From assembly GCF_900100765.1 (NCBI RefSeq), contig NZ_FNFO01000003.1:469348-533347 (forward strand): a stretch of DNA of 64,000 nucleotides, written 5' to 3'. Each line of letters starts with the position of its first letter. The stretch's first letter is position 1. Origin of the DNA: Catalinimonas alkaloidigena (GTDB lineage: Bacteria; Bacteroidota; Bacteroidia; Cytophagales; Flexibacteraceae). Positions 3,508-34,777 of the stretch are shown here, piece by piece. The notes under the pieces are model-generated. The model had not been told where the DNA came from and did not search any database. It saw only the letters and a list, made by a program, of their open reading frames with translations. The translations under genes and the position numbers were made by a program.

Positions 3508-6500
3508 TTAGAAAGAGAGGTTAAGGCCCAGGGTGTAGATGCGAGGTTGCGGATAGGTACCCCAGTCGATGCCCACCGCCAGATCGTTCTGTCCCCGGTC
3601 GTTGTCGTTGGTGCCCATCTCGGGGTCCAGCCCCGGATAGTTCGTGAGCGTGAACGCGTTCTGCACACTGAAGTAGACACGGGTTTGCGAAAGGTGCGCC
3701 GCTTCGAGCCAGGAGGCCGGCAACGTGTAGCCCAGCGTCACGTTTTTCAGGCGCAGGTACGAGCCGTCTTCCAGAAACCGCGTCGAGTTGCGGGTGTTGT
3801 TGTTTTCATCCACCAGCACAACGCGCGGCATCGAGTTGCTGGTGCCGGGGCCGGTCCACCGTTCCAGAATTTCGGCCGACGAGTTGAAGGGGCGGGAGGC
3901 GTCTTCGCTGATCCGCCCGGCGTAGTTGTAGAGATCATTGCCCTGCACGCCCTGCACAAACGCCCGCAAATCGAACCCCCGGAAGCCCGCCGTGGCGGTG
4001 AGTCCGTAACTAAAGTCCGGAAACGGGCTGCCGATGTGCATCCGGTCGGCTCCGTCGATCACACCGTCGTCGTTGAGATCGCGGAAGCGGATGTCGCCAG
4101 GTGCCGTCCCGGCCGCCTGAAAGGCATGCGCATCGATTTCGCTCTGGTCCTGAAAGAGGCCATCGGCGACGTACAGGTAAAACGAGCCGATCGGGTAACC
4201 CGGCTCGGTGCGGGTCAGCGGAGGCGTCTGGCTGTTGCTCAGCCCGCCGGAAATCGGCTCGCCGCTACCCAGCGAAAGCACTTCGTTATGAATCGTTGTG
4301 AAGTTGGCGTCGACACTCCATGTAAACGGCCCGTCGTTGCTCTGGTACCCCAGCGACAGTTCCAATCCCCGGTTCTCCACGTCGCCGGCGTTGACGTAAG
4401 GAGCGCTTGCTTTCCCGGCCGCCAGCGGCAACGGCACCGGCACCAGCATGTCGGACGTGCGGCGGATGAAGTAGTCGGCGGTAAACGAAAGGCGATCTTT
4501 CCACAGGCTTACGTCCAGCCCTACGTTCGTAGTAGCGGAGGTTTCCCACTTCCGGTTGGCGTCGCCACGCGCCACCACCGCATAGCTCCGCACGGCCTGT
4601 TGCGGATTGCCGAAGGTGTAACCCACCGTCTCGTCGACGAGCGACGACGGATAGTAGTCGGGAATCTGGTCGTTGCCCAGTTGCCCCCACCCGGCCCGCA
4701 ACTTCAGGTTCGAAAGCCAGGCGACGTCGCTCAGGAAGGCCTCGTTCGACAGGCGCCATCCCACCGAGACCGACGGAAAAATGCCGTAGCGTTGGTTACG
4801 CCCGAACCGCGAAGAGCCGTCGCGACGGAGGTTGGCGGTCAGCAGATAGCGATTGCCGTATTCGTACGTGGCCCGCGCAAACAAGGAAAACAGCGCCCAG
4901 TCGTAGGCCGTCTCCGAGTTCTGAATCTGGCTCAGCCCCCGCGAGAGGTAGCGGAAGTTGGGACGCTGGTCAGGAAAGTTGCTGCGCGAAGCGTTGGTAA
5001 AATGGCTCTGGTTTTGGATGGCTTCCGTTCCGATCACCGCCGTGGCGTAGTGCCGCTCGCCAAAGTAACGGCTGTACGACAGCGTGTTGGTCCAGTTCAT
5101 CGTCGCTGTGCGCAGGTCGGTCAGGCTAAGGGAATTGGGATTATTGATGCGCCCGAAATTGCCCCACTGCTCGTTGAAGCGTTTGTCTTCACCCGTCAGA
5201 AAATCGATGCCCCCGTCCGAACGGAACTTCAGGTCTTTTATGATTTCCCACTCGGCATAGAGGTTGCCGAACAGGCGGTAGCGCCGCTCTTTGTTGTCCG
5301 TTTTCTCGGACAGCCCCACCGGATTGTAACCATCGCCGAAAAACGACTGGTCGGCGGGAAGATCGCTGTATTCTCCGTTTGCGTTCCGGAGCGGAATGGC
5401 CGGCGCCCGCAACAGCGCGTACCGGATAATGCCCCCGCCGTTGCCCCCCCCCCCATCGCCCGAACTGCCCACGACGTCTTTCTTCGAGTAGGTCAGCGTC
5501 AGGTTGGTACCTACTTTCACCTGTTTGCTGAGGTCCGCGTTGACGTTGGAGCGGAACGAATACCGCTCGAACCCGGAATTCGGGATGATGCCCTCCTGAT
5601 TAAAGTAATTTCCGGCGAGGTAGAAACGGATGCGCTCGCTGCCGCCGCTGGCCGACAGGTTGTAACTCTGGATGGGCGCAACGCGAAACAGCGCATCGAG
5701 CCAGTCGGTGTTGGGTAAGGAATCGGCGTTGCCGGTAAACGGACTGATGGCCAGGGGCCCCTGCCCGTTTGCGGCCCGCTGGGCGTTGGTGTTGGCGATG
5801 GCCTCGTTCCGGATTTCGACGTACTGGGGCGTATTGAGGAGTTTGGGAAGGCGATACGCCTCCTGCCAACCGTAGTAGCTGTCGAGGTTGAACGTGGTTT
5901 TGCCACTCTTGCCCGATTTGGTAGTGATGATCACGACGCCGTTGGCAGCTCGGGCACCGTAGATCGACGCCGCGGCGGCATCTTTCAATACCGAAATCGA
6001 CTCGATGTCGCGCTGGTTGAACGTGTTGATCGGTCCCTTGGTGGGTACCCCGTCGATGATGTAGAGCGGGCTGTTATCGTTGATGCTGCCCACGCCCCGG
6101 ATGCGCACCCGAATGTCGTCGCCGGGCGCGCCGGTTCCCTGCGTAACTTGCACCCCCGCGGCCTGTCCCTGCAAGGCCTGGTCGATGCTGATGTTGGGCA
6201 ACTGGTTCAGCTTCTGCGGATCGATCGACGCCACCGCGCCCGTCACATTTTGCTTTTCCTGCGTGCCGTAGCCCACTACCACCACTTCCGAAAGGGCCTG
6301 CACGTTGTCGGCCAGTTGTATGTTCAGGGTCGTCTGGTTCCCCACGAGAATTTCCTGCGTGATGTACCCGATGGACGAAAACACCAGCACGGCGCTCTCG
6401 TCGGGTACGGCTAGGGTATAATTTCCGTCTACATCCGTCACTGTCCCGCTGGCCGTACCTTTCAGCAGCACATTCACGCCGGGAATGCCTTGGCCCTGCG

Positions 6501-25434: not shown

Positions 25435-25517
25435 AACTGCTTTGTCCTGGAAGAAAGCCGTACCACTTCTACCTGAGCGCGAGAATAGAAGTGGTACAGC
25501 TAAATTTTTACCGGTTA

Positions 25518-28500
25518 CTAGTTGCCGTTGCGGCCGAGGGCTTCTCCGATGCGCTGGATGCCTTCGGCGAGGACTTCCATCTGGGCGACAACCTGGCTGA
25601 CGCCATTTCCCCCAAGGCCTTTCAGGCGGTTGTTCTTCACAAACTGGGTTTTGATGGCTTCCCAGCGTGCGTTCTCCTCGGAGGTGATCCAGCCGAGCAT
25701 TTCCTTCCACTTGAGCAGGTTCGCTTCGGCACCCTGCGTCAGGGTTTGCGCTTCCTGTTCATAGTGCGAACGCAGCAGGGTCTTCAGTTCGTCGTCGTTC
25801 ATCACGGGCACCACCTTTTCGGCCAATTTGTTCATGTCGCGGTACGAGCCCTGAAGCTTGAACGGCGGTTCGGTGCGGTACTCGTCGGCCTGCGCAGCGG
25901 AGTGGATGTATTCCTGGTTCACGCGCAGAAGCACGTCGCGCACCTGCACGAGTTTGCGCAGCACGTTGACGTATTCGTTGATTTCCTCGGGCGTATGATT
26001 CGCCTCGAACTCCAGTCCTTCTTTGCTGCCCGTTGCGGCAATGCGCAGGAGTGGGAACAGGTCGGCGGTACTTTTGGCGGCCAGCTTCTGAAGCGTCGGG
26101 TTGGCCATCAGGCTGTTTTCCAGGTAGCTCAACTCAAATGCCTCGTCCGAATCCCCGATGATGTCGCCCAGGTTGTAGATGTCGGCCCGGTTGGCCAGCA
26201 TGTCGGGAATCTGAAACTGGTCGCCGCTTTCCGTGTACGGGTTTCCGGCCATCACCACGGCCACCTTCCGCCCCCGCAGGTCGTAGGTCCGGCTGCGGCC
26301 CCTGTACACACCCTCGATTTTCCGTTGCGCGTCGCACAGGGAGATGAATTTTTGCAGGAACTCCGGATTCAGGTGCTGGATGTCGTCCAGGTAGAGCATC
26401 AGGTTATCGCCCATTTCGAGCGCGAGGTTTAGCTTCTCCAATTCCTCCCGTGCCGATGCATTGGGAGCGGTTCCCGGATCGAGCGAGACGACCTGATGCC
26501 CAATGGCCGGTCCGTTGATCTTCATGAACACCAGCCCTAACCGGCTGGCGATGTATTCCATCAGCGTGGTTTTCCCGTAGCCGGGAGGCGAAATCAATAG
26601 CAGCATGCCCTGGCGGTCGGTCCGTTTCTGGTCGCCGGCCGCGCCCAACTGCTTCGCGAAGTTGGTGCCGATCAGGGGCAGGTAGACTTTGTCGATCAGG
26701 CGGTTGCGGACAAACGAGGTCAGCACGCGGGGCCGGAAGGAATCAAGCCGCAGTTCGTGTCGGAAGTCTTCTGTCAGTTGCTTTTTCAGTGCCACGAACG
26801 CTTGGTACTGCGGCACGGTTTCCCGTTCGAAGGTGCGGAGCCGCTGCGAAAAATCGTGATACTGTAACGTATACGCGCCATTGTCGAGGACAGCGTGCGT
26901 GCCTTGCAATCCTGACAGCGCCGTTTCGAGCGAGGCTTCGATGACTTTCGCTTCGCCCGCCGGGTTGGCGAATAACTGCACGGCAACTTCGTCTACATAC
27001 CCCCGCTGCTCCCCTTTCCCGGTGTGGTCCAGAAAGGCCCGTAACCATTTCCGGATCAGTTTGAAGCGGGCGGCGGGTGACGCGGCCAGCGCCTCGACCG
27101 AAGTCTGATACGCGGCTTCGGCCTTCACCTGTTTCAGGTAAGCTGCGAAATCACGACGCAATTGGGCGGCCGCGCCTTCGGTCACGAAGGATTCGTCACG
27201 GGCAATTTCGTGCAACAGATACGCGCCGGCCTCTTCGGCCCAAGTCTCCGCAAACAACTGGTGCTGCTGCGCAAAGGCACGTAATTCGGTCTGCAATTCT
27301 TCAATCATCCCGTCGAACTCGTGCGTATCGGGAAAGACCTGTAGAATTACGCCGATGCCTTTCAGGCGGTGGTGCCAGACGGATTTTTCCTTTTCGGCCA
27401 TGAAGCCCTGCCAGTACAAGGCAGCCATGGCACGGGCGGACGAAGGGTAGCGCAACAAGTCGATGTGCTGGTCCAGTTGCCGCAGCGCCTGCAACAGCAG
27501 GAGCGCGTCCTGATCGTGCACGCCTTTGACGTAGCCTTCCTGCGGGTGGTTGGCGACGTACTGTTGCACCGCTTCTGCCAGCGTGTCGTCCGACAGCTGG
27601 GTCTGCTGAAACAGTTGCCAGGCCAGGTACTCGGCACGGTACACCCGCGCATTTTCCGACACCAGGGTCTGGTCCCACGCCTCGCGGGTTGCCAGAAAGG
27701 CCGGATCGGTGATGGGCTGGAAGAAGTTGGTGCCGGTCAGGTGAAACTGTAGCGTCCCGTCGCGCGGCACGAGCGTCAGGTCCAGCGGCTGCGTATTGAC
27801 GGAGAAGTGATGCTCGCCGAAGCGAATTGTATCTGCGCCGCCGACAAATAATTCCTGCCGGTCTTTCAACTGACGGGCGGCATCTTCGCGCACCGTTTTC
27901 AGGCGACTCAACACGTCATCGGCCTTGACCGAATCGCCCAGTTCCTGCAACTGCTGCGCAAACTGCCGCACCTTATCGACCATCAGGTCGGCGGCAAAAT
28001 AGCCGTTGATCTCCGCGATGGAGGCGAAGCTCGACACCCGGTTCTGAATGCCTTTCAGCACCCGCTCGGCCGATTGCCGCAGGGCCTCGGCCCGACGGTT
28101 GCGGGTTTCGATTAGCGCGACCTTCTTCGACTCGAACGTGTTGTAGAGTTCTTCGCGCTTCTCGGTAATCTTCTCAATAAAATCCTCGAATTCCACGAAG
28201 CGGCCTTCCAGTTCCTCCAGTTGAATCAGGAGTTTGGTGAGGTATTCGTCGCACCGCTCGGGCGTCTGGCTGGCGTCGAGGTAATTTGTGACGCTCTGGT
28301 CGATCAGCTTCAGTTGCGCCGCAAATTCGGCCCGTCCTTCCTGCCCACGCAGCTCTTTCCGCTTCCGCTTCAGCGCGGCCCGCAACTGATTCAAGTGGGC
28401 GTATAAGGTCGAAATGCGGTCGATGATCTGCGTGGTTTGTGTCGCGTCCTCGATTTTCAGGTTACTCACCACTTCGATCAGCAGATCCAGTTCATGAGCG

Positions 28501-30443
28501 GCAGTATCGACCTCCTGTTCCGTCTCTCTCACCTCTACCACTTTCCCGACGGCATCCGCCTTCTGCTGCAATTCTTCCAGCCGCTGCTGGTACGGGGCCA
28601 GTGAGTTTTCCTGCAACAGGAACTGCACCGCGTCGTGCGCCAGCTTGTCCTGCTGCTCGGCGGTTTTTCCTTCTTTCGTGGCGATGGCTTCCCCATCGGC
28701 GTACCGCAGTTCTTTCAGCGCAATCAGCTCACCCCGCACGGTGCGCAGCTCGGCCAGCCACTCCACGTACTGGCGAATGGAGTCCGCCTTTTTCCGGCGC
28801 ACCTTTCCGAACAGTTCTTCCGCTTTCTGGAAGACCCGGTGGGTTTCTTCGGCCGTGCTCTGGCGCAGCCGGGTTACTTTCTCGAACTCTTCGATGGCGG
28901 CTGCCGCCGACTGCTTGATCGCCTGGAGCGGTTCGTTCAACTGGTACGCCTCTTCCCGGCTCAGCCAATGGTAACTGTCCAGGAGGGTCGAGGCTTGCTT
29001 CGCCAGGTCGATGTACAGGTCGGCGTAGCGGTCATCGCGGTTCACCAGCGTGATTAGCTCGCGGCTTTCGGCCATGGCCCGCACCACGTCTTTGTTGCCA
29101 ATCTTGAACAGGTAGTGATCGCTCGTGGTCGACAGCGGCACGTCGGGTCCGACAAACGGCGTTTGCCAGATTTGCACGGCGTGGTGCCGCTTCGGAGCGT
29201 TATCGCCCGCCGTGTCGCGAAAGAGCAACAATTCACCACTTTCGAACAGCGAATAGCCGTGGCAACTCACCGGAATGTCGGCGCGCTGCTCAATCAGGTT
29301 GTAAAAGAGGAGCGTGTAATGGTTGGAATACGGGCTGTAGAATACGTAGAGGAAATCTTCCCCGTTCGGCGAGGCCAGGCGTTTCTCGAACCGCATGTGC
29401 GTGTCGTCGGTATCGAACAGCTTGTATTCGCCGTTTTGCAGGTAGAATCCGTTGGGAAACAGGATTCCCTGGTCGTCGGGCAGAAGGACACAGGCATCGG
29501 CCAGGGCGTCGATCCGTACCGCCTCGCGCAACTTCTCATTGTAGACGATGTAGCGGAAAGCCTTCTCCTGAAAAGGCTTGATTTTCAGGATGATTAAATT
29601 CCCGACCGGAGCGTAGTGAATTTCGGCATCGTCGAGGGTCTGATCGACTTGGTCGACCGGTTCGGCGTAGATCCCCTCGCCCGTATCGGTGTTGTCTTCT
29701 ACCTTGATCGTCAGGTCACCACCAACCGCCTCGACAAACACCCGATCTTCGATGGAAATGTGCGGGTGCATCCCCTTCCGGTGCATGTCGCGCGTGGCCC
29801 GTATCCACCGAAATTCGTGTTGGTTCGGGTAGACAAACTCGTGATCACTCCGGTTGTCCAGGTACTTGACTCCCTTTCCGTCCGGCTGGATGGCCCACTT
29901 GAACGTCTTGATGTCTTCCGGTTTCGGGCTGGTCTGGAACACCATGAACAGTTGCGGTCCGATCACCCCAAACTTCACGAAACGTGTGTCGCGGTAGTAC
30001 TTGTAAAGATTTTTGAAATCCTCCAGAAACCGCGCGTCCTGCACCATCGCCAGCGATTCTGCATGGAACTGGTGATCCTGGTAGCGATAGATGCTGAACA
30101 CATCCTGTAGGTGCGTCTCGGTTTTGAGGCCCAGGTGGACGTTGTAGCCGAACAGGAAACTGTCGCCGATCGGGACCATGTCCTGCGCTACGCAGTTGTG
30201 CTCGGTCGTGACGCGCTCGGTCGCCACCAGTTTGGTCTCCAGGCTCCCGAACACGTCTCTGCGCGCGCCGTTCAGCTGATCAAGGCGCGTCCGCAGGTCG
30301 TCAGCGTGTTGCTTCAAGCGATTGCGCAGGATCTCGTACGTGCCCTGTTCCAGTTGGGTCGGGGCTTCTTCGGTAGTATGTGAAATGGTCTCAGCCATGA
30401 CGTGGTTTCGTTGTGTAGTGGACATCCCCCGGCCTGCGGCCAC
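25518..30443 (-). CDS. Giant (about 1640 aa) multidomain protein: beta-rich N-terminal region, roughly 400-aa coiled coil, AAA+ ATPase domain near the C-terminus
   Basis: Walker A is LLLISPPGYGKTTLMEYIASRLG (about 26.56-26.61 kb), Walker B is LMLYLDDIQHL, and sensor 1 is VAVVMAGNP. A long heptad-like helical region separates the N-terminal region from the ATPase. The first 15 codons lie inside a palindrome, so the true start may be the Met at 30398 (MAETISHTTEE). Confidence 0.75.
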   Translation of the reverse strand: MAAGRGMSTTQRNHVMAETISHTTEEAPTQLEQGTYEILRNRLKQHADDLRTRLDQLNGARRDVFGSLETKLVATERVTTEHNCVAQDMVPIGDSFLFGYNVHLGLKTETHLQDVFSIYRYQDHQFHAESLAMVQDARFLEDFKNLYKYYRDTRFVKFGVIGPQLFMVFQTSPKPEDIKTFKWAIQPDGKGVKYLDNRSDHEFVYPNQHEFRWIRATRDMHRKGMHPHISIEDRVFVEAVGGDLTIKVEDNTDTGEGIYAEPVDQVDQTLDDAEIHYAPVGNLIILKIKPFQEKAFRYIVYNEKLREAVRIDALADACVLLPDDQGILFPNGFYLQNGEYKLFDTDDTHMRFEKRLASPNGEDFLYVFYSPYSNHYTLLFYNLIEQRADIPVSCHGYSLFESGELLLFRDTAGDNAPKRHHAVQIWQTPFVGPDVPLSTTSDHYLFKIGNKDVVRAMAESRELITLVNRDDRYADLYIDLAKQASTLLDSYHWLSREEAYQLNEPLQAIKQSAAAAIEEFEKVTRLRQSTAEETHRVFQKAEELFGKVRRKKADSIRQYVEWLAELRTVRGELIALKELRYADGEAIATKEGKTAEQQDKLAHDAVQFLLQENSLAPYQQRLEELQQKADAVGKVVEVRETEQEVDTAAHELDLLIEVVSNLKIEDATQTTQIIDRISTLYAHLNQLRAALKRKRKELRGQEGRAEFAAQLKLIDQSVTNYLDASQTPERCDEYLTKLLIQLEELEGRFVEFEDFIEKITEKREELYNTFESKKVALIETRNRRAEALRQSAERVLKGIQNRVSSFASIAEINGYFAADLMVDKVRQFAQQLQELGDSVKADDVLSRLKTVREDAARQLKDRQELFVGGADTIRFGEHHFSVNTQPLDLTLVPRDGTLQFHLTGTNFFQPITDPAFLATREAWDQTLVSENARVYRAEYLAWQLFQQTQLSDDTLAEAVQQYVANHPQEGYVKGVHDQDALLLLQALRQLDQHIDLLRYPSSARAMAALYWQGFMAEKEKSVWHHRLKGIGVILQVFPDTHEFDGMIEELQTELRAFAQQHQLFAETWAEEAGAYLLHEIARDESFVTEGAAAQLRRDFAAYLKQVKAEAAYQTSVEALAASPAARFKLIRKWLRAFLDHTGKGEQRGYVDEVAVQLFANPAGEAKVIEASLETALSGLQGTHAVLDNGAYTLQYHDFSQRLRTFERETVPQYQAFVALKKQLTEDFRHELRLDSFRPRVLTSFVRNRLIDKVYLPLIGTNFAKQLGAAGDQKRTDRQGMLLLISPPGYGKTTLMEYIASRLGLVFMKINGPAIGHQVVSLDPGTAPNASAREELEKLNLALEMGDNLMLYLDDIQHLNPEFLQKFISLCDAQRKIEGVYRGRSRTYDLRGRKVAVVMAGNPYTESGDQFQIPDMLANRADIYNLGDIIGDSDEAFELSYLENSLMANPTLQKLAAKSTADLFPLLRIAATGSKEGLEFEANHTPEEINEYVNVLRKLVQVRDVLLRVNQEYIHSAAQADEYRTEPPFKLQGSYRDMNKLAEKVVPVMNDDELKTLLRSHYEQEAQTLTQGAEANLLKWKEMLGWITSEENARWEAIKTQFVKNNRLKGLGGNGVSQVVAQMEVLAEGIQRIGEALGRNGN

Positions 30444-30480
30444 CCCCTTAGAAGGAGGTGGCCGCAGGCCGGGGGATGTC
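30421..30480. repeat. Perfect 24-bp inverted repeat (GACATCCCCCGGCCTGCGGCCACC / GGTGGCCGCAGGCCGGGGGATGTC) with a 12-nt spacer
   Basis: Read directly from the sequence. It generates mirror-image ORF starts (MAAGRGM...) on both strands. It lies 6 bp after the DUF559 stop and overlaps the nominal ATPase start. Confidence 0.85.
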
Positions 30481-30485
30481 CCAGA

Positions 30486-30854
30486 CTACGGTTGATTTCT
30501 CTCTATCCAATCAAGAATGGTGTCAATCACCAGTTTCATATCTCGCTTGGGCTCCCGATCGTCGAAACGTAAGAAGCGCACTCCTAGCCGCTCCAGTTGC
30601 TGCTGACGCTTGGCATCTACTCGCTCTCGTCCCTGATGACTACTTCCGCCAATTTCCAGAGCCAGTTGCAATTCGTGACAATAGAAGTCAACGATAAAAT
30701 GGTCGATAGGCACCTGTCGGTGAAATTCCCAGCCCAACTGCTTTCCTTTGATCTGCTGCCAGAGCAATACTTCTGAAAGCGTGCTGTGTTTCCGCAGAAA
30801 ACGCGCGAGTCGCTTTAAGTAGGGACGGTACGGAATGATCGAATTTCGAACCAT
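30486..30854 (-). CDS. DUF559 endonuclease-domain protein (Vsr-like fold)
   Basis: 122 aa with the hallmark DUF559 motifs (SEVLLWQQIKGKQLGWEFHRQ ... DFYCHELQLALEIGGSSH). Confidence 0.75.
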   Translation of the reverse strand: MVRNSIIPYRPYLKRLARFLRKHSTLSEVLLWQQIKGKQLGWEFHRQVPIDHFIVDFYCHELQLALEIGGSSHQGRERVDAKRQQQLERLGVRFLRFDDREPKRDMKLVIDTILDWIERNQP

Positions 30855-30911
30855 ACAAAAAACCGGCAGGCAGATGACCTACCTGCCGGTGAAGTTTACG
30901 AAGTCAGAATT

Positions 30912-33089
30912 CTAAAGCATCTTGTCCAGGCTCCGGGCCGGCGTATCGGAGAGGCCGTTCGATTTGGCGAGGGAGAGCAACTGTTGCAGCTGACTCCGGG
31001 TGCCGTCGTGGTCGGTCATGCCGATCATCTTGGTCAGTAGGGCTGCGACCGTCAGGTTTTTGATGTCGGCCGACGTGATGCCCATCCGTTTAACGAGGTC
31101 GCGGACATTGTCGACGATGTTATGCCCTTCGTGCCCGTTGCCGTTCAGAAGTGAGTTCTTCACCCCGTTCAGCACCTGGCTGTTGCCCAGCGCCGCGTCG
31201 ATCGATTTACCCGTCGCGATGGCGCTGGTAATCTTGTCGAAGAAGGCACCGTCGCCCCCCACGATGTCGATGTTGGCCGACTTCAGCGCTTCGGCTAGGA
31301 CTTTTGCCTGCGATTCGGCGAGGTTACGCTGCACGTCGATGTGGGCTAGTTGTACCTCTTTGTCCTTCGCCAGTTGCAGCTTGAACTCCTCATGCTCGCG
31401 CCCCACCCCGTCGAGGGCTTTCATGGCTTCGGCTTTGTCGCGGACGCCTTTGGCTTCGGCGGCGAATTTCTCGGCCATCACGCGGGCGGCGGCCAGGCCC
31501 TGCTTCTCTTCGGCCTGCGCTTTGGCTTCGATGACTTCGGCATCAGCCTTCCCTTTCTGCAGAGTGACTTCGGCAGCCACTTTCCCTATTTCCTGATCGG
31601 CTTTTGCCTGAGCACGGGCTTTGGCTTCGATGCCTTTGGCTTCGGCCAGGGCCGTGGCTTCCACGATACCGGCTTCGGCTTCCCCTTGCTTTTCGCGGGC
31701 GGCGGCCTTGGCTTCCATCACCTGGGCTTCGGCCAATCCGACGGCGGCGGCTTTGGAGGCTTCGGCATCGGCCAGGACTTTGATCGCTTCGGCTTTCTTC
31801 CCGGCGGTGGCCTGGTCGGCTTCCGCTTCGATGATCAGCTGCTGCGATTTGAACTCGGCCGCCTGCCGCTCGGCCTCTGCCGATTTGATGTGTTCTACCA
31901 ACGCCTCTTCGGCTCGCATTTCGGCTTCTTTGATGGCGACAGCTTTTTTCCGTTCGGCTTCGGCGAAGGCGCGGGTGTCTTTGATGCGCTCTTCTTCCAG
32001 CACCACCGACTTCTGCACTTCGACGCGCTCGCGAATGGTTTCCTGGATGTTTTTCTGTTCTTCTTCTACCGCTTTCTGCTTCGCGATGGCGGCCAGCGTT
32101 ACGATGCGCTCGCGTTCGGTGCGCTCCAGTTCCTGATCTTTCAGGACGCGCTCCTGCTCGACAGCCTCGGTGCGCTCTTTGTTTTTGCGAGCGACGACTA
32201 CTTGCCGTTCGCGGTTTTCTTCCGCCACCTGGATTTCCTCGTCCGACTGGATGCGGGCGCGCTCTGCTTTCAGGCGCTCTTCCTGCTGTACGCGAGCGGC
32301 TTCGGCCTCTTCGCGCGAACGAATGGTCGCCACTTCCCGCTTCTGTTTTTCTTCTTTCTCGATCTGCTGACGCTCCAGTTCCAGAATCGCTTCTTTCGCC
32401 TCTACGTCCTGCTGTTTGATCGTTTTCTGCTTATCGCGTTCGATCTTGTTGGCCAGCACCTTCTGCACGGCAGTCAGTTCAGTGATCTTTTTGATCCCTT
32501 CTGCATCCAGAATGTTGTGCTCGTTCATGAACTCCAACGGCGTCTGCTCCAGGTAATCGATAGCACAGTCGTCCAGCACGTACCCGTTCAGATCGGTTCC
32601 GATGTGTTGAATGATTCGCTCCCTGAACCCTTCGCGTTCGTTGTAGAGGTCGACAAAATCAAAGTGTTTCCCAACCGTTTTCAGCGCTTCGGAAAACTTG
32701 GCATCGAAGAGATTTTCCAGCGCTTCCGGATCGGAACCGCGTTCGCAACCGATGGATTGGGCTACGTGGAGGACATCTTCTTTGGTCGGATTTACTCGTA
32801 CGAAGAAGGTTACCTGGATGTCGGCCCGCATGTTGTCTTTACAGATCAGGCCATCTTTTCCCTGACGAGAAATCATCACCGTTTTCAGGGAGATGTCCAT
32901 CGTTTCCAGACGGTGCAATACAGGAACTACCAACATCCCTCCAAAAGAGACGTTTGTGCCCCCAACACCCGTGCGTACCAATGCGCGGCCTTGCTCGGCC
33001 TTTTGGTACATTTTGGCGAGGGTAATCAGGATCATCAATAAGACGAATACACTGATACCCACTACCATGATCGTTACGTTTTCTAACAT
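30912..33089 (-). CDS. Flotillin-family SPFH protein (YqiK/FloT-like, long Bacteroidetes form)
   Basis: 725 aa. N-terminal TM, SPFH/band-7 domain, then a very long E/A/K-rich coiled coil. The antisense ORFs 31350-33041 and 31621-32136 are low-complexity artefacts. Confidence 0.85.
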   Translation of the reverse strand: MLENVTIMVVGISVFVLLMILITLAKMYQKAEQGRALVRTGVGGTNVSFGGMLVVPVLHRLETMDISLKTVMISRQGKDGLICKDNMRADIQVTFFVRVNPTKEDVLHVAQSIGCERGSDPEALENLFDAKFSEALKTVGKHFDFVDLYNEREGFRERIIQHIGTDLNGYVLDDCAIDYLEQTPLEFMNEHNILDAEGIKKITELTAVQKVLANKIERDKQKTIKQQDVEAKEAILELERQQIEKEEKQKREVATIRSREEAEAARVQQEERLKAERARIQSDEEIQVAEENRERQVVVARKNKERTEAVEQERVLKDQELERTERERIVTLAAIAKQKAVEEEQKNIQETIRERVEVQKSVVLEEERIKDTRAFAEAERKKAVAIKEAEMRAEEALVEHIKSAEAERQAAEFKSQQLIIEAEADQATAGKKAEAIKVLADAEASKAAAVGLAEAQVMEAKAAAREKQGEAEAGIVEATALAEAKGIEAKARAQAKADQEIGKVAAEVTLQKGKADAEVIEAKAQAEEKQGLAAARVMAEKFAAEAKGVRDKAEAMKALDGVGREHEEFKLQLAKDKEVQLAHIDVQRNLAESQAKVLAEALKSANIDIVGGDGAFFDKITSAIATGKSIDAALGNSQVLNGVKNSLLNGNGHEGHNIVDNVRDLVKRMGITSADIKNLTVAALLTKMIGMTDHDGTRSQLQQLLSLAKSNGLSDTPARSLDKML

Positions 33090-33094
33090 GAGCT

Positions 33095-33730
33095 TCAGAG
33101 TTTATAAGGATCAATGAGATAATACTTTTTATCGGGCTGATACTCAATGACCAGCGCCGTTTCTCCCTTAGGCACTACTTTACCTTCGGGCGTACGAACA
33201 AAGAGTTTGATAGGAGAGCTTTTTCCTTCTACCACGGCTTGGCCACCGTGCTGATGATCGATGGTTCCCAACGTGCGGCAGATTTTCCCGATGACGGTGG
33301 TATCTTCTTCCTCGTCCATGTGCTCGAACACCTTGACAAAAGGCCAGGTAAGAAACTTGGCAATGAACAGGCTAGCGATCAGCACAGGCAGCAGAAAGAT
33401 CAGCGAAACGGCAAACGACGTGTTGCTTACGTAATGGTTCGCCAGAACCGAACCAGCCCATAAGGGAAGCGCCAGGAAGGTGAGAAACACCATCAACGGC
33501 ACTTTCCCCAGGTTGAAGAAGGCCAGAACATGGTTCAGCCACATCAGCGAACTGCCGCCGTCTACATCTACATCGGCGTCGGCATCCACGTCCACATCGA
33601 CGTCAATGTCGATCGAATCCAGGTCCACCATTCCAATCAGCGTGACCAGCCAGTATCCTATGACAAACAGGAGCAGAAAGGTCGGGATGATGTTGACCGA
33701 CGAAAAGGAGGCGTCAACTAATTCTTTCAT
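33095..33730 (-). CDS. NfeD/YqiJ-like inner-membrane protein (flotillin partner) with an acidic D-x repeat linker
   Basis: Real start is the ATG at 33730 (MKELVDASFSS...). Multi-TM N-terminal half, a DSIDIDVDVDVDADADVDVD linker, and an OB-fold-like C-terminus (GGQAVVEGKSSPIKLFVRTPEG). It abuts the flotillin gene with a 5-bp gap. Confidence 0.65.
   Translation of the reverse strand: MKELVDASFSSVNIIPTFLLLFVIGYWLVTLIGMVDLDSIDIDVDVDVDADADVDVDGGSSLMWLNHVLAFFNLGKVPLMVFLTFLALPLWAGSVLANHYVSNTSFAVSLIFLLPVLIASLFIAKFLTWPFVKVFEHMDEEEDTTVIGKICRTLGTIDHQHGGQAVVEGKSSPIKLFVRTPEGKVVPKGETALVIEYQPDKKYYLIDPYKL
33561..33628. repeat. Short tandem GTCGAC/ATC-type hexamer-like repeats encoding (D-V/I/A)n
   Basis: A direct-repeat tract inside the NfeD-like CDS. 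Confidence 0.55.
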
Positions 33731-33859
33731 GGCGATCGATCCGTGTAGGTGTGAGATAATGATCGGCCGCTGCGATGGTACCACACAACGGCCGTCGAAA
33801 ATAGCGCAGAAGGCGGCACGAAGCCCAGTGCCTGGCACCTGAACTCCGTACCTTTTTCT

Positions 33860-34588
33860 TTATTCTTTCGCGTCAGCAGCATTGGACGGCCCCAGGCCCA
33901 TCTTTGCTTTCAGTGCAGCCAAGTCGGCCGAGGCTTGCACGTCGGTGGCGTCAAGCGCCCGGTCGATCTCTTCGTCGAGGCTGCGGCTTTCGTTGGCAAT
34001 CTGCCCGTACGATTCGGCCAGCGCCTCCGATTGCGCCACTTTCTCTTTCATCCGCTCCAGCATGGAAGCGGTGTCGGACGAGTCGATCTGGGCCAGTTGC
34101 TTGTTCAGTCGCTGCGAAGCGGCGCTCACGTTGACGCGGGCTTTCAAACTTTTTAGTTCGTTTTCCCACTTGCTGATGTCGGCCTTCAGGCGTTTGATGT
34201 TGCCTTCCATCTGCTCGACGTGGCGGTCGAACTGCTCTTTTTCAGTCGTGGTACGTTTTACGTGCGCTTCGTTCTGAGCTTTTTTGGCCAGCGCTTCGGT
34301 GGCAAGGCGGTCGGCTTCTGCCGAATCCATGTGGCCCTGTTGTGCACGTTGCAGCAACTGCATGGCTTTCTGCTCGTACTCTTCGGCCTTGGTCTGATAG
34401 TCTTTCATATCATTCTGCGCCCGAATGGCCATGGCTTTGATTTCGGCTAGCCCGTGCAGGCTTTTGTCCAACTCGGCCTTCATATCACGGATGCCTTGCT
34501 CGGTCATCTTGATAGGATTTTCCAGCCGGTCGATGGCCGCATTGGTTTCGGCTTCTCCTATTTTGAAGAGGCGCTTGAAGATGCTCAT
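33860..34588 (-). CDS. pspA: PspA/IM30-family protein (phage-shock protein A)
   Basis: Real start is the ATG at 34588. The N-terminus MSIFKRLFKIGEAETNAAIDRLENP matches the PspA consensus (MGIFSRF..IVNANINALLDKAEDP). About 242 aa, all coiled coil. Confidence 0.8.
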   Translation of the reverse strand: MSIFKRLFKIGEAETNAAIDRLENPIKMTEQGIRDMKAELDKSLHGLAEIKAMAIRAQNDMKDYQTKAEEYEQKAMQLLQRAQQGHMDSAEADRLATEALAKKAQNEAHVKRTTTEKEQFDRHVEQMEGNIKRLKADISKWENELKSLKARVNVSAASQRLNKQLAQIDSSDTASMLERMKEKVAQSEALAESYGQIANESRSLDEEIDRALDATDVQASADLAALKAKMGLGPSNAADAKE

Positions 34589-34777
34589 GGTCGTAGAGTT
34601 ATGAGGTGGAAAGATGGATTTTGTGCGTTTGATGAATTGAATATACAATCAGATCTTCCACAATTTCCAGCGTGTAAGAAATAAGCGGCGTTAGACTTAG
34701 ATGAAAGGAAGCCGGCATGGACAAGCGGCGAACCTAAACTATTAAACACAATAGCATTACTATCAATCAGGCAGCAT

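Follow-up and report, generated by a model that had tools for sequence, protein, structure and literature searches.

The ATPase locus and its features

The window, a 64-kb (64,000 nt) stretch of Catalinimonas alkaloidigena DNA, contains a large palindrome between a small nuclease gene and the start of a long ATPase gene. The features are listed below with the evidence for each; TM stands for triplex motif.

25518-30398, minus strand: DUF3686/DUF7902/AAA ATPase gene, 1626 aa, start ATG 30398 (gene caller, orthologues)
30420-30481, no strand assigned: whole palindrome, two inverted TM/BoxC-like units with one common central mini-hairpin (sequence and folding; same layout at locus L011)
30422-30458, minus strand: partner unit (sequence; mirror test 7/7; resembles the upstream units of L034 and L046)
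30443-30479, plus strand: plus-strand unit (sequence; mirror test 6/7; near-identical to the solo unit of L005)
30486-30854, minus strand: solitary DUF559 (Vsr-like PD-(D/E)XK) nuclease gene, 122 aa (Pfam, PDB)
30862-30890, minus strand: intrinsic terminator of the 725-aa gene, a 13-bp stem followed by TTTTTT (terminator scan)
30912-33089, minus strand: conserved 725-aa gene (at L006 and L008, two of the three orthologous loci examined, the ATPase gene lies immediately behind a ~700-aa gene)

The first-pass annotation of this DNA had described a perfect 24-bp inverted repeat, and the two 24-nt arms (30421-30444 and 30457-30480) are indeed exact reverse complements. The palindrome is longer than claimed. 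In full it covers 62 nt, with arms of 30 nt each (30420-30449 and 30452-30481) that are 97% complementary and lie 2 nt apart; the sole flaw is a U.G pair, seen on the minus strand (mRNA sense). No other close inverted repeat of the 64 kb comes near it in length, the runner-up being 21 nt long and 81% complementary. The RNA folding check that had been proposed for the repeat gave a minimum free energy of -76 kcal/mol, compared with -34.7 ± 3.6 kcal/mol for 200 shuffled sequences (z -11.6), none of which folds as well.

Within the window the only matches to the 24-mer at up to three mismatches are its own two arms (0 expected), and the doublet is present in one copy. A scan of 185,579 species-representative genomes, which did not return C. 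alkaloidigena itself, yielded four single-strand matches to an exact 20-mer of the palindrome and none in which this 20-mer forms a hairpin. Three of the matches are from Actinomycetota and look like chance. The fourth, L005, is a true solo unit from another Bacteroidota genome. A search of Rfam identified no known RNA family; all matches were below threshold and to long-hairpin miRNA models. Scans of viral contigs gave 49 loci for ACATCCCCC...GGGGGATGT and 51 with the order reversed. These were all generic hairpins with no DUF559 gene nearby, and the outer 9-mers are therefore not enough by themselves to define the repeat family.

The ATPase reading frame is open through the hairpin up to a GTG at 30443 (peptide VAAGRGMSTTQRNHV), and the palindrome could accordingly be read as the beginning of the ATPase coding sequence. 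Of the 15 codons in this extension, the hairpin takes in only about the first eight (30443-30421); the earlier description had it covering all 15. The mirrored ORF starts pointed out earlier are present on both strands, with V/MAAGRGMS beginning the ORFs 25518-30443 (minus) and 30458-30697 (plus). The gene caller places the ATPase start at 30398, and in 13 of 13 orthologues there is no counterpart to the 15 extra residues, the N-termini aligning with Met 30398. Both observations point to Met 30398 as the true start, in agreement with the first-pass annotation, and the palindrome is non-coding. That it is coding sequence, or else a product of chance or of the assembly, we find scarcely credible: no shuffle folds as well and homologous elements are found at L011 and L005, which makes it a biological sequence.

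The DUF559 gene is probably inserted

The DUF559 protein matches Pfam PF04480 with 90.6 bits (cut-off 20.6; E 7e-26). Among known structures it matches 3hrl (E 1.5e-19) and, more distantly, 3r3p, the homing endonuclease I-Bth0305I (E 0.006). All residues of the subfamily-invariant set (E28, D56, E67, D69, H73, D80, R83) are present except D69; of 83 homologues 82 have Asp at this position, where the window protein has Gly. Neither PADLOC nor NCBIfam assigned DUF559 or its neighbours to a defence system.

The GC content is ~0.50 over the DUF559 gene as opposed to 0.59–0.61 in the flanks. A comparison of the locus boundary, also suggested earlier, revealed that the gene is absent from all three orthologous ATPase loci examined (L006, L008, L009); at L006 and L008 the ATPase gene comes immediately after a ~700-aa gene. 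Based on its low GC content and this absence, the DUF559 gene looks like an insertion before the ATPase gene, and DUF559 homologues elsewhere occur in unrelated gene contexts. The gene and its hairpin would then have entered a conserved cluster consisting of PspA, the ~700-aa gene and the DUF3686 ATPase, at a point between the terminator of the ~700-aa gene and the ATPase start. That terminator ends 8 nt short of the DUF559 ATG and fills the spot that a repeat unit occupies at other DUF559 loci. This upstream unit, usual for DUF559 genes, is missing in the window.

The palindrome forms the 3′ flank of the DUF559 gene. Between the DUF559 stop codon (TAG, 30488-30486) and the 24-nt arm are five nucleotides (TCTGG), one fewer than the 6 bp reported before. 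L011, which carries the closest DUF559 homologue (67% identity), has the same TGGGACATCCCCC...GGGGGATGT palindrome 3 nt past the DUF559 stop, with a different inner stem.

The palindrome is neither a canonical terminator nor a classical REP

A stem-loop of extreme stability, flawed only by the one G.U pair on the sense strand and placed between two co-oriented genes 4–5 nt past a stop codon, could be a dedicated terminator or attenuator between DUF559 and the ATPase, one of the options named in the first-pass annotation, or could protect the 3′ end of the DUF559 mRNA. Rho-independent terminators are likewise GC-rich stem-loops located just past stop codons. Moreover, the 21 nt from the hairpin to the ATPase ATG leave no room for a promoter, and ATPase transcripts from upstream must therefore cross the hairpin. 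No Bacteroidota-type promoter motif was found between DUF559 and the ATPase, but this is uninformative because the motif is rare throughout the 57% GC window. Unlike Rho-independent terminators, the palindrome has no U-tract after the stem on either strand (tails: minus strand ACUACACAACG, plus strand CAGACUACGG). It is therefore no canonical terminator; in addition, its stem of 29 bp greatly exceeds the usual length. The terminator scan did not report it, though the real terminator at 30890-30862 was found. No comparable hairpin element is present at the orthologous ATPase loci, and the palindrome belongs to an oriented repeat family that is found on both sides of DUF559 genes, in both orientations and beside any neighbour genes. 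Holder et al. (2015, PMC4666352), citing their reference 41, state that BoxC/PIT elements are without terminator or promoter activity. A terminator, attenuator or mRNA-protecting function is on these grounds improbable.

The suggestion of a REP-like or recombination site at an insertion boundary is supported: the palindrome belongs to a repeat family and marks the 3′ edge of the inserted DUF559 gene. It is a short, GC-rich, extragenic palindrome with the inverted doublet of a REPIN, features that an ordinary REP/REPIN mobilised by a RAYT transposase would share. The two REP superfamilies are defined by GTAG and CGTC tags (PMC3733652), neither of which is present; the ends are ACAT/ATGT. Nor is there a Y1/RAYT gene within 10 kb, the neighbour being DUF559 (PF04480). 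Lacking both tag and RAYT gene, the palindrome is not a classical REP, and the absence of a second copy in the window and of a genomic 20-mer hairpin (see above) also speaks against this reading, which we hold to be very improbable. Two further element types were rejected on sequence grounds alone: the GTTRRRY core of an integron attC site is absent, and no target-site duplication of the kind expected for a solo IS terminal inverted repeat was seen in the sequence.

The palindrome is probably built from two inverted TM units

BoxC/PIT/TM repeats consist of a C-rich arm, a loop, a G-rich arm, a second loop and a second G-rich block mirroring the first, and the same order is found on both strands of the palindrome. 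The plus-strand unit is composed of the C-arm CCCCCTT (30443-49), the loop AG, the G-arm AAGGAGG (30452-58), a 12-nt second loop TGGCCGCAGGCC (30459-70) that is itself a GGCC/GGCC mini-hairpin, and the mirror block GGGGGAT (30471-77) followed by GT. Its tag is turned toward the DUF559 stop, as is usual for a downstream unit pointing at the gene. The L005 solo unit is almost identical to it and has an identical 12-nt loop. The minus-strand unit reads CCTCCTT, CT, AAGGGGG, TGGCCGCAGGCC, GGGGGAT, GT, and its tag faces the ATPase start at a distance of 21 nt.

Both units contain the hairpin typical of BoxC/PIT/TM elements, a pyrimidine arm and a complementary purine arm around a loop of 3–6 nt, and their canonical relatives read CCCCC-TTTGAA-GGGGG. 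The window hairpins, CCTCCTT-CT-AAGGGGG (minus) and CCCCCTT-AG-AAGGAGG (plus), each have one mismatch (T.G or C.A). Such mismatches display no strand bias (5 T.G and 4 C.A), so that action of the element as RNA or as DNA is not separable in this way. The third block mirrors the purine arm with G*G, A*A or T*A pairs, GGGGGAT matching the mirrored AAGGGGG at 7/7 positions in the minus unit and at 6/7 in the plus unit. Among 154 distinct units, 108 have a perfect mirror of the purine arm as their third block; when arms were swapped between units in 500 permutations, the mean was 12.5 and the maximum 21. The mirror fitted better than a direct repeat in 56 units, and the reverse was true for 14 (p 2e-7). 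As no stable triplex was detected in vivo (Holder et al., PMC4666352), the triplex layout may reflect some other constraint.

The window units depart from a textbook TM in having a second loop of 12 nt instead of ~3, C/G blocks of 5–7 nt and a mismatch in the mini-hairpin. Because of these departures a strict TM parser does not call the window unit, and a profile of the canonical unit misses it as well. The second loop of TMECO is 3 nt; long, self-pairing second loops like that of the window are found at L005, L034, L046, L081 and L195. The TMECO consensus, CCCTCNCCC N3-6 GGGNGAGGG N3 GGGNGAGGG, is not matched by the window units, and judged by sequence the window element classifies as TM-class but not as TMECO. 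The flanks of Sinorhizobium DUF559 genes do match this consensus. DUF559-flank units have shorter blocks (5–7 nt) than BoxC and an extra conserved (A)TGT, and they share with BoxC the common use of TTA as second loop. A further difference is that BoxC pairs stand side by side, whereas the window units share one hairpin.

We consider it likely that two TM units of the BoxC/PIT type, paired as a palindrome, make up the hairpin and form the 3′ flank of an inserted solitary DUF559 gene. The two inverted units would overlap at a common C5/G5 mini-hairpin and hence make up a single 62-nt stem-loop. The hairpin would then be repeat-element DNA and not a regulator specific to the operon.

DUF559 genes are typically bracketed by inverted units

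The pairing was surveyed at 82 metagenomic DUF559 loci using a profile search with the canonical unit. Within 200 nt of the DUF559 gene, 100 units point at the gene and 16 away from it; the remaining 350 kb hold 17 units. This corresponds to ~3.5 units per kb beside DUF559 and 0.049 per kb elsewhere, a ~70-fold higher density. By the canonical profile alone, at least one unit is present at 51 of the 82 loci (62%), and 36 (44%) are flanked on both sides. Flanking inverted repeats scored above every shuffle at 46 of 78 loci. Genes of this DUF559 subfamily are typically bracketed by inverted units with the G-rich tag toward the gene, and the repeat type follows the clade of the DUF559 protein. 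In other phyla, units accompany seven of eight DUF559 loci on plasmids or chromids, at a density of 3.2 per kb compared with 0.017–0.02 per kb in control DNA. The pairing is seen in Bacteroidota, Cyanobacteriota, Pseudomonadota (including E. coli ycjD with BoxC) and Deinococcota. The link between DUF559 and TM is purely positional.

In E. coli, TMECO no. 9, a BoxC copy (numbering of Holder et al., PMC4666352), is located 168 nt past ycjD and shares its strand, and a degenerate inverted partner is found at the ycjD 3′ end. In an evenly spaced genome sample, BoxC occupied 10–25 other places (median 16) in 37 genomes with ycjD versus 1–14 (median 2) in 23 genomes without it, a correlation that is confounded by phylogroup, since ycjD is found in A/B1/C and eefRABCD at the site elsewhere.

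The bracketed arrangement could also be produced by a self-mobile DUF559 cassette, for instance a mini-transposon or a homing endonuclease gene that stands alone. The repeats would then be terminal inverted repeats or palindromic target halves, and the hairpin an end-to-end junction or footprint rather than a repeat processed in trans. The position of the DUF559 gene between inverted units is compatible with this, as are inverted repeats that at L013 and L057 continue for over 100 nt past the units, one “empty” facing pair (L057, 4211-4248) and the fact that certain E. coli lineages carry ycjD in place of the eef operon. Furthermore, predicted targets of programmed inversion are enriched for “DUF559 domain-containing protein” (odds ratio 14; PMC9881135), and a table entry in PMC3424549 lists the proven homing endonuclease I-Bth0305I (3r3p) with a Vsr-like fold. 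Gene-less solo units and arrays exist, however, as at L005 and in E. coli, where about 20 BoxC copies accompany one ycjD, and target-site duplications were not observed. A DUF559 protein of identical sequence (P0060) occupies a fixed site in the same context in 24 of 24 contigs and so gives no sign of recent transposition. The cassette overlaps with the palindromic TM pair proposed above, the sole difference being who moves what, and we regard it as possible but rather unlikely.

Comparison with known nuclease and repeat systems

BoxC/PIT/TM repeats were reportedly described by Bachellier and Hofnung in the 1990s and by Hoyne and Maher in 2000. We know of no enzyme that has been assigned to the family since the 1990s. 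The repeats are widespread: TMECO is present in 3610 copies in 262 proteobacterial genomes, and Microcystis has hundreds of G/C-rich triplex motifs (Holder et al., PMC4666352). These repeats are extragenic, occur singly or in inverted (“palindromic”) pairs that tend to decay into plain stem-loops, and have been tied to local genome instability; mobility genes were never found near them, and their origin and associated enzyme are explicitly called unknown (Holder et al., 2015, PMC4666352). The DUF559-flank units share the extragenic location and the single or paired occurrence. A link to a DUF559 gene is not described for BoxC, and we found no paper describing one for BoxC/TM.

In RAYT-REP/REPIN systems a usually single-copy nuclease gene likewise lies between inverted hairpin-plus-tag repeats, inverted doublets give long hairpins, and the repeat type tracks the protein clade. 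The proteins differ, DUF559 having a Vsr-like PD-(D/E)XK fold and RAYT an HUH Y1 fold. So do the tags, a mirror G-block in DUF559 units and GTAG in REPs. In the Bacteroidota loci, unit copies away from DUF559 are also seemingly few (about 0.05 per kb). Ssn proteins are GIY-YIG site-specific ssDNA nucleases whose genes are flanked by their own hairpin repeats, 71% having at least one repeat and 42% being flanked on both sides (Nat Commun 2025, PMC11893778). These frequencies are very similar to the 62% and 44% obtained for DUF559 above. In both cases a small single-domain nuclease gene lies between oriented hairpin repeats (NTS/SRM) and the genomic repeat load tracks the presence of the gene. 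As the window gene is of the PD-(D/E)XK type and the repeat architecture differs, Ssn-SRM can be regarded as an analogue of DUF559-TM in organisation only. I-Bth0305I, an EDxHD, Vsr-like homing endonuclease, is a distant sequence relative of DUF559 and illustrates that the fold can drive selfish gene mobility; unlike DUF559 it is intron-encoded in phage, and it is not known to have palindromic repeat flanks.

If RAYT-REP and Ssn-NTS are taken as a model, the DUF559 nuclease may recognise or cut the unit in a folded and probably single-stranded state, and the gene may spread or be maintained together with the repeats. We tentatively extend this to the small DUF559 proteins as a group, YcjD included, which could be structure- or sequence-specific nucleases acting on the BoxC/PIT/TM repeats that flank their own genes, although on sequence data the odds are somewhat against it. 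Its recurrence in four phyla makes the pairing a pointer to DUF559 as the candidate partner protein of these repeats. The oriented association, the clade-following repeats and the BoxC copy number in E. coli make the question of a BoxC enzyme experimentally approachable. If the proposal is true, DUF559-TM would be the third partnership between a nuclease and its own repeat, after RAYT-REP and Ssn-NTS, and would explain the origin, the spread and the genome-destabilising effect of BoxC/PIT/TM repeats. DUF559 proteins could then also supply new structure-specific DNA nucleases.

The copy in the window is probably a relic, as the upstream unit is missing and Asp69 is replaced by Gly. Its perfect symmetry would most likely have arisen by fold-back template switching at the mini-hairpin or by collapse of an inverted TM pair, the kind of decay into stem-loops that Holder et al. 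report for palindromic TM sites. The palindrome may bind a protein, for which the DUF559 nuclease would be the foremost candidate, rather than a regulator of the ATPase operon. Its present effect is likely incidental, in that transcripts reading from DUF559 into the ATPase 5′ UTR would carry a very stable stem-loop, and at the DNA level the palindrome would be a site prone to non-B structure and recombination.

Structure and position of the hairpin

The inverted repeat at 30421–30480 was confirmed as GACATCCCCCGGCCTGCGGCCACC followed, after 12 nt, by its exact reverse complement. The palindrome reaches 30-nt arms (30420–30449 and 30452–30481), which contain a single mismatch and leave 2 nt at the centre, and the 12-nt spacer, GGCC-TGC-GGCC, is itself a mini-hairpin. 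With up to three mismatches allowed, the two 24-nt arms were the only matches in the 64 kb, and none of the window's remaining close inverted repeats approaches the hairpin. The exceptional stability expected of the stem was borne out by folding of the minus-strand RNA (−76 kcal/mol vs −34.7 ± 3.6 for shuffled sequences, z = −11.6). All relevant genes around the hairpin are on the minus strand, and database proteins identical to those encoded here have Catalinimonas alkaloidigena (Cytophagales) as their source.

Features around the hairpin, in gene order (window coordinates)
33089–30912, minus strand: 725-aa gene, first in order
30890–30862, minus strand: textbook terminator after the 725-aa gene, then TTTTTT
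30854–30486, minus strand: DUF559 gene, 122 aa, its ATG 8 nt past the terminator
30420–30481, no strand assigned: hairpin, between the DUF559 stop and the ATPase ATG
30398 (start ATG), minus strand: DUF3686/DUF7902/AAA ATPase gene, 1626 aa, starting 21 nt past the hairpin

The hairpin adjoins the DUF559 stop as the first-pass annotation described, although the gap to the 24-nt arm is 5 nt and not 6. It also overlaps the extended ATPase ORF, but of the 15-codon extension only some 8 codons are covered. The ATPase start at 30398, proposed in place of the annotated one, is supported by the gene caller and by orthologue N-termini: 13 orthologues start 9–17 residues ahead of a conserved LExGTYEI motif, and the 15 hairpin-encoded residues have a counterpart in none of them. 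On these grounds the hairpin is non-coding. A search for promoter signals at the hairpin locus found none, and the suggestion that the hairpin is a terminator or attenuator was not supported.

DUF559 and the hairpin are an insertion

Both DUF559 and the hairpin were inserted at the ATPase locus. In two related loci, L006 and L008, a ~700-aa gene is directly followed by the ATPase gene without DUF559, the spacers being 202 nt and 487 nt, respectively. A third, L009, carries another gene upstream of the ATPase and likewise has no DUF559. The nearest ATPase orthologues used for this comparison are only 55–61% identical. GC content is ∼0.50 over the DUF559 gene vs 0.59–0.61 on both sides, and elsewhere DUF559 homologues lie between unrelated housekeeping or restriction-modification genes. 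They are often found within or beside restriction-modification or BREX loci: among type I restriction-modification gene fragments (L011, 4145–5865), between hsdR and hsdM (L197, 1–3369) or adjoining pglX (L206, 1011–1118).

In L008, the intergenic region upstream of the ATPase orthologue (5520–5800) contains one unit resembling TM, CCCCTCCTTGC...GCTAAGGAGGGGG-TA-GGGGTGGTT, and also another motif, ATGTCATCCTGAGNNGNGTCGAAGGGA, in three tandem copies. The slot upstream of the ATPase therefore gathers repeats in another lineage too.

Oriented repeat units flank DUF559 genes

The nearest DUF559 homologue (L011, 67% identity) has a perfect palindrome 3 nt past its stop, ACATCCCCC-TTAGT-CCCCCTTCGAAGGGGG-ACTAA-GGGGGATGT. 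Its outer motif and its 13-nt junction, TGGGACATCCCCC, are those of the window's palindrome, but the inner stem differs. In L012, the same locus from another sample, the palindrome is 10 nt shorter and near the contig end (5385–5418 vs 5385–5428 in L011), which could reflect real slippage or assembly collapse.

We fetched 80 metagenomic DUF559 loci, and the counts cover 78–82 loci. In most of them AATTCCCCCTTTGAAGGGGG-(2–5 nt)-GGGGGATGT precedes the ATG by ∼17 nt, and the stop is followed, after ∼16 nt (often 0), by ACATCCCCC-(3–5 nt)-CCCCCTTCAAAGGGGGAATT. The 8-mer GGGGATGT, which has a background rate of 0.052/kb, faces the gene from no more than 150 nt upstream in 43 of 82 loci, and its complement lies no more than 150 nt downstream in 31 of 81. 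When 92 units were combined into a profile, it matched 100 units facing the gene and 16 facing away within 200 nt of DUF559, and only 17 in the remaining 350 kb; units occurred on both sides in 36 loci. Flanking inverted repeats outscored every shuffle in 46 of 78 loci. Other DUF559 protein clades carry the variant tags GGGGTGT and GGGGTGGGT, and tag type tracks protein cluster.

The window's 12-nt spacer recurs exactly in a solo unit of another Bacteroidota genome with no DUF559 nearby (L005), and in variant form in L034, L046, L081 and L195. Larger ACATCCCCC ... GGGGGATGT blocks lie on both sides of DUF559 in L195/L196; in L033, L073 and L090 they are placed next to DUF559 genes or in the gaps between them. 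The hairpin is two inverted DUF559-type units with one mini-hairpin in common. Its membership in this DUF559-tied repeat family, together with the insertion of DUF559, supports the option, raised earlier, of a REP-like element or insertion boundary.

L195 and L196 (∼1910–2200) are one locus in two samples and differ in the count of 57-nt modules (hairpin core plus spacer) 3′ of DUF559; arrays therefore vary within populations.

The units are potential triplex motifs

BoxC, PIT and TM are names for potential intrastrand purine-motif triplexes, built as C-arm, loop, G-arm, loop and second G-arm (Holder et al., 2015, PMC4666352). The DUF559-flanking units follow the same rule. Their tag is the mirror of the hairpin purine arm, A being answered by A or T (AAGGGGG with GGGGGAT; AGAGGGG with GGGGTGT or GGGGAGT; GGAGGGG with GGGGTGG; AAGGGAGA with AGAGGGAT). 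Perfect mirrors were seen in 108 of 154 distinct units, compared with a mean of 12.5 and a maximum of 21 when arms were swapped between units. A mirror fitted better than a direct repeat in 56 units and worse in 14 (p = 2e-7). The window units have triplex mirror scores of 7/7 and 6/7.

As a palindromic pair of the TM class, the hairpin is tied by position to the inserted DUF559 gene, and the element belongs, as a variant, to the already known BoxC/PIT/TM repeats. Inverted ("palindromic") TM pairs decay to plain stem-loops, and transposase or integrase remnants were never found near TMs, whose origin was called unclear (Holder et al., PMC4666352). PIT elements had no promoter or terminator activity in a follow-up study by Maher and co-workers, as summarized in PMC4666352 (its reference 41).

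BoxC copy number and ycjD in E. coli

NCBIfam indicated that the window's DUF559 protein is related to E. coli YcjD. CCCTCGCCCCTCTGGGGAGAGGGTTAGGGTGAGGGG lies 168 nt downstream of ycjD, with a degenerate inverted partner at the ycjD 3′ end; Holder et al. (2015, PMC4666352) list CCCTCGCCCCTCTGGGGAGAGGGTTAGGGTGAGGGG in their Table 1 as copy no. 9. All 5,426 complete E. coli genomes contain it, at ∼19 places each, and 3,378 of them have ycjD. Among 60 genomes sampled at even spacing, those with ycjD (n = 37) had 10–25 further BoxC places (median 16) vs 1–14 (median 2; at most 4 in 14 genomes) in those without (n = 23; Mann-Whitney p = 1e-9, the lineages not being independent). The site between fabI and sapF (fabI-sapF) is taken by ycjD in phylogroups A, B1 and C and by eefRABCD in other groups (PMC12817139).

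At the ycjD start region in L204 (5758–5802), a perfect 17-bp hairpin, TCACCTCATTCTGACAA / TTGTCAGAATGAGGTGA, overlaps the annotated start codon and is not TM-like.

Spread across phyla and precedents

A tblastn search of plasmid records with the window's DUF559 protein found homologues in Cyanobacteriota, Alpha-, Beta- and Gammaproteobacteria and Deinococcota. Seven of the eight loci fetched from this search have TM-pattern units within 400 nt of DUF559, and the eight together hold 29 units in 8.9 kb (3.2/kb vs 0.017–0.02/kb in 930 kb of control DNA). Paired blocks flank DUF559 on both sides in Sinorhizobium and Pseudanabaena, and the Sinorhizobium units fit the E. coli TM consensus (TMECO).

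The association of TM repeats with DUF559 is consistent, oriented and cross-phylum, and appears to be undescribed so far. No link to BoxC or triplex repeats was found in the accessible portions of the DUF559 and ycjD literature, and a literature text search for the hairpin core CCCCTTTGAAGGGG or its complement gave no match. A systematic study of predicted programmed-inversion targets lists "DUF559 domain-containing protein" as enriched among them, with an odds ratio of 14 (PMC9881135); this is in keeping with genes that have inverted repeats on either side. The closest precedents for this organisation are RAYT-REP and Ssn-NTS/SRM; Ssn nuclease genes have a flanking repeat in 71% and repeats on both sides in 42% (PMC11893778). 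We consider the association more interesting than the hairpin element itself, and it is open to direct test.

Possible mechanism and state of the window copy

The DUF559 nuclease may recognise or cut folded TM units, and gene and repeats would either be co-inherited or the nuclease would seed and maintain the repeats. Codon 69 of the window's DUF559 gene (30648–30650) encodes Gly (LEIGG) in the E-I-D-G motif, a position occupied by Asp (IEIDG) in 82 of 83 homologues. The difference is a single A-to-G change and probably impairs the nuclease. The gene also has no upstream unit, the terminator abutting the ATG in its place. Given the missing unit and the Gly for Asp, the window copy looks like a relic.

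The simplest accounts of the hairpin's perfect symmetry would be template switching by fold-back at the mini-hairpin and the collapse of a pair of hairpins such as L073 and L090 contain. Its present-day effect is probably incidental, namely a very stable stem-loop in transcripts entering the ATPase 5′ UTR, and the site may be prone to non-B DNA structure.

Other repeats and neighbouring genes

Just 3′ of the ATPase stop, a 16-bp inverted repeat (25456–25501, 94% complementary, 14-nt loop) is probably the terminator hairpin of that gene. The ATPase, for which PADLOC gives a weak LmuB match only, belongs to a conserved cluster (window 25518–34648; L008 1104–10938) with PspA/IM30, small membrane-associated proteins and a ~700-aa protein, which has no Pfam family. 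A separate family of similar block style, a perfect 18-nt palindrome GGGGGATGTACATCCCCC then CTAnGACCCCCTCCTTGC with no DUF559 nearby, recurs on low-GC viral contigs, several of them from giant-virus MAGs (L144, L145, L148, L154, L161, L164, L168, L182–L184, L191).
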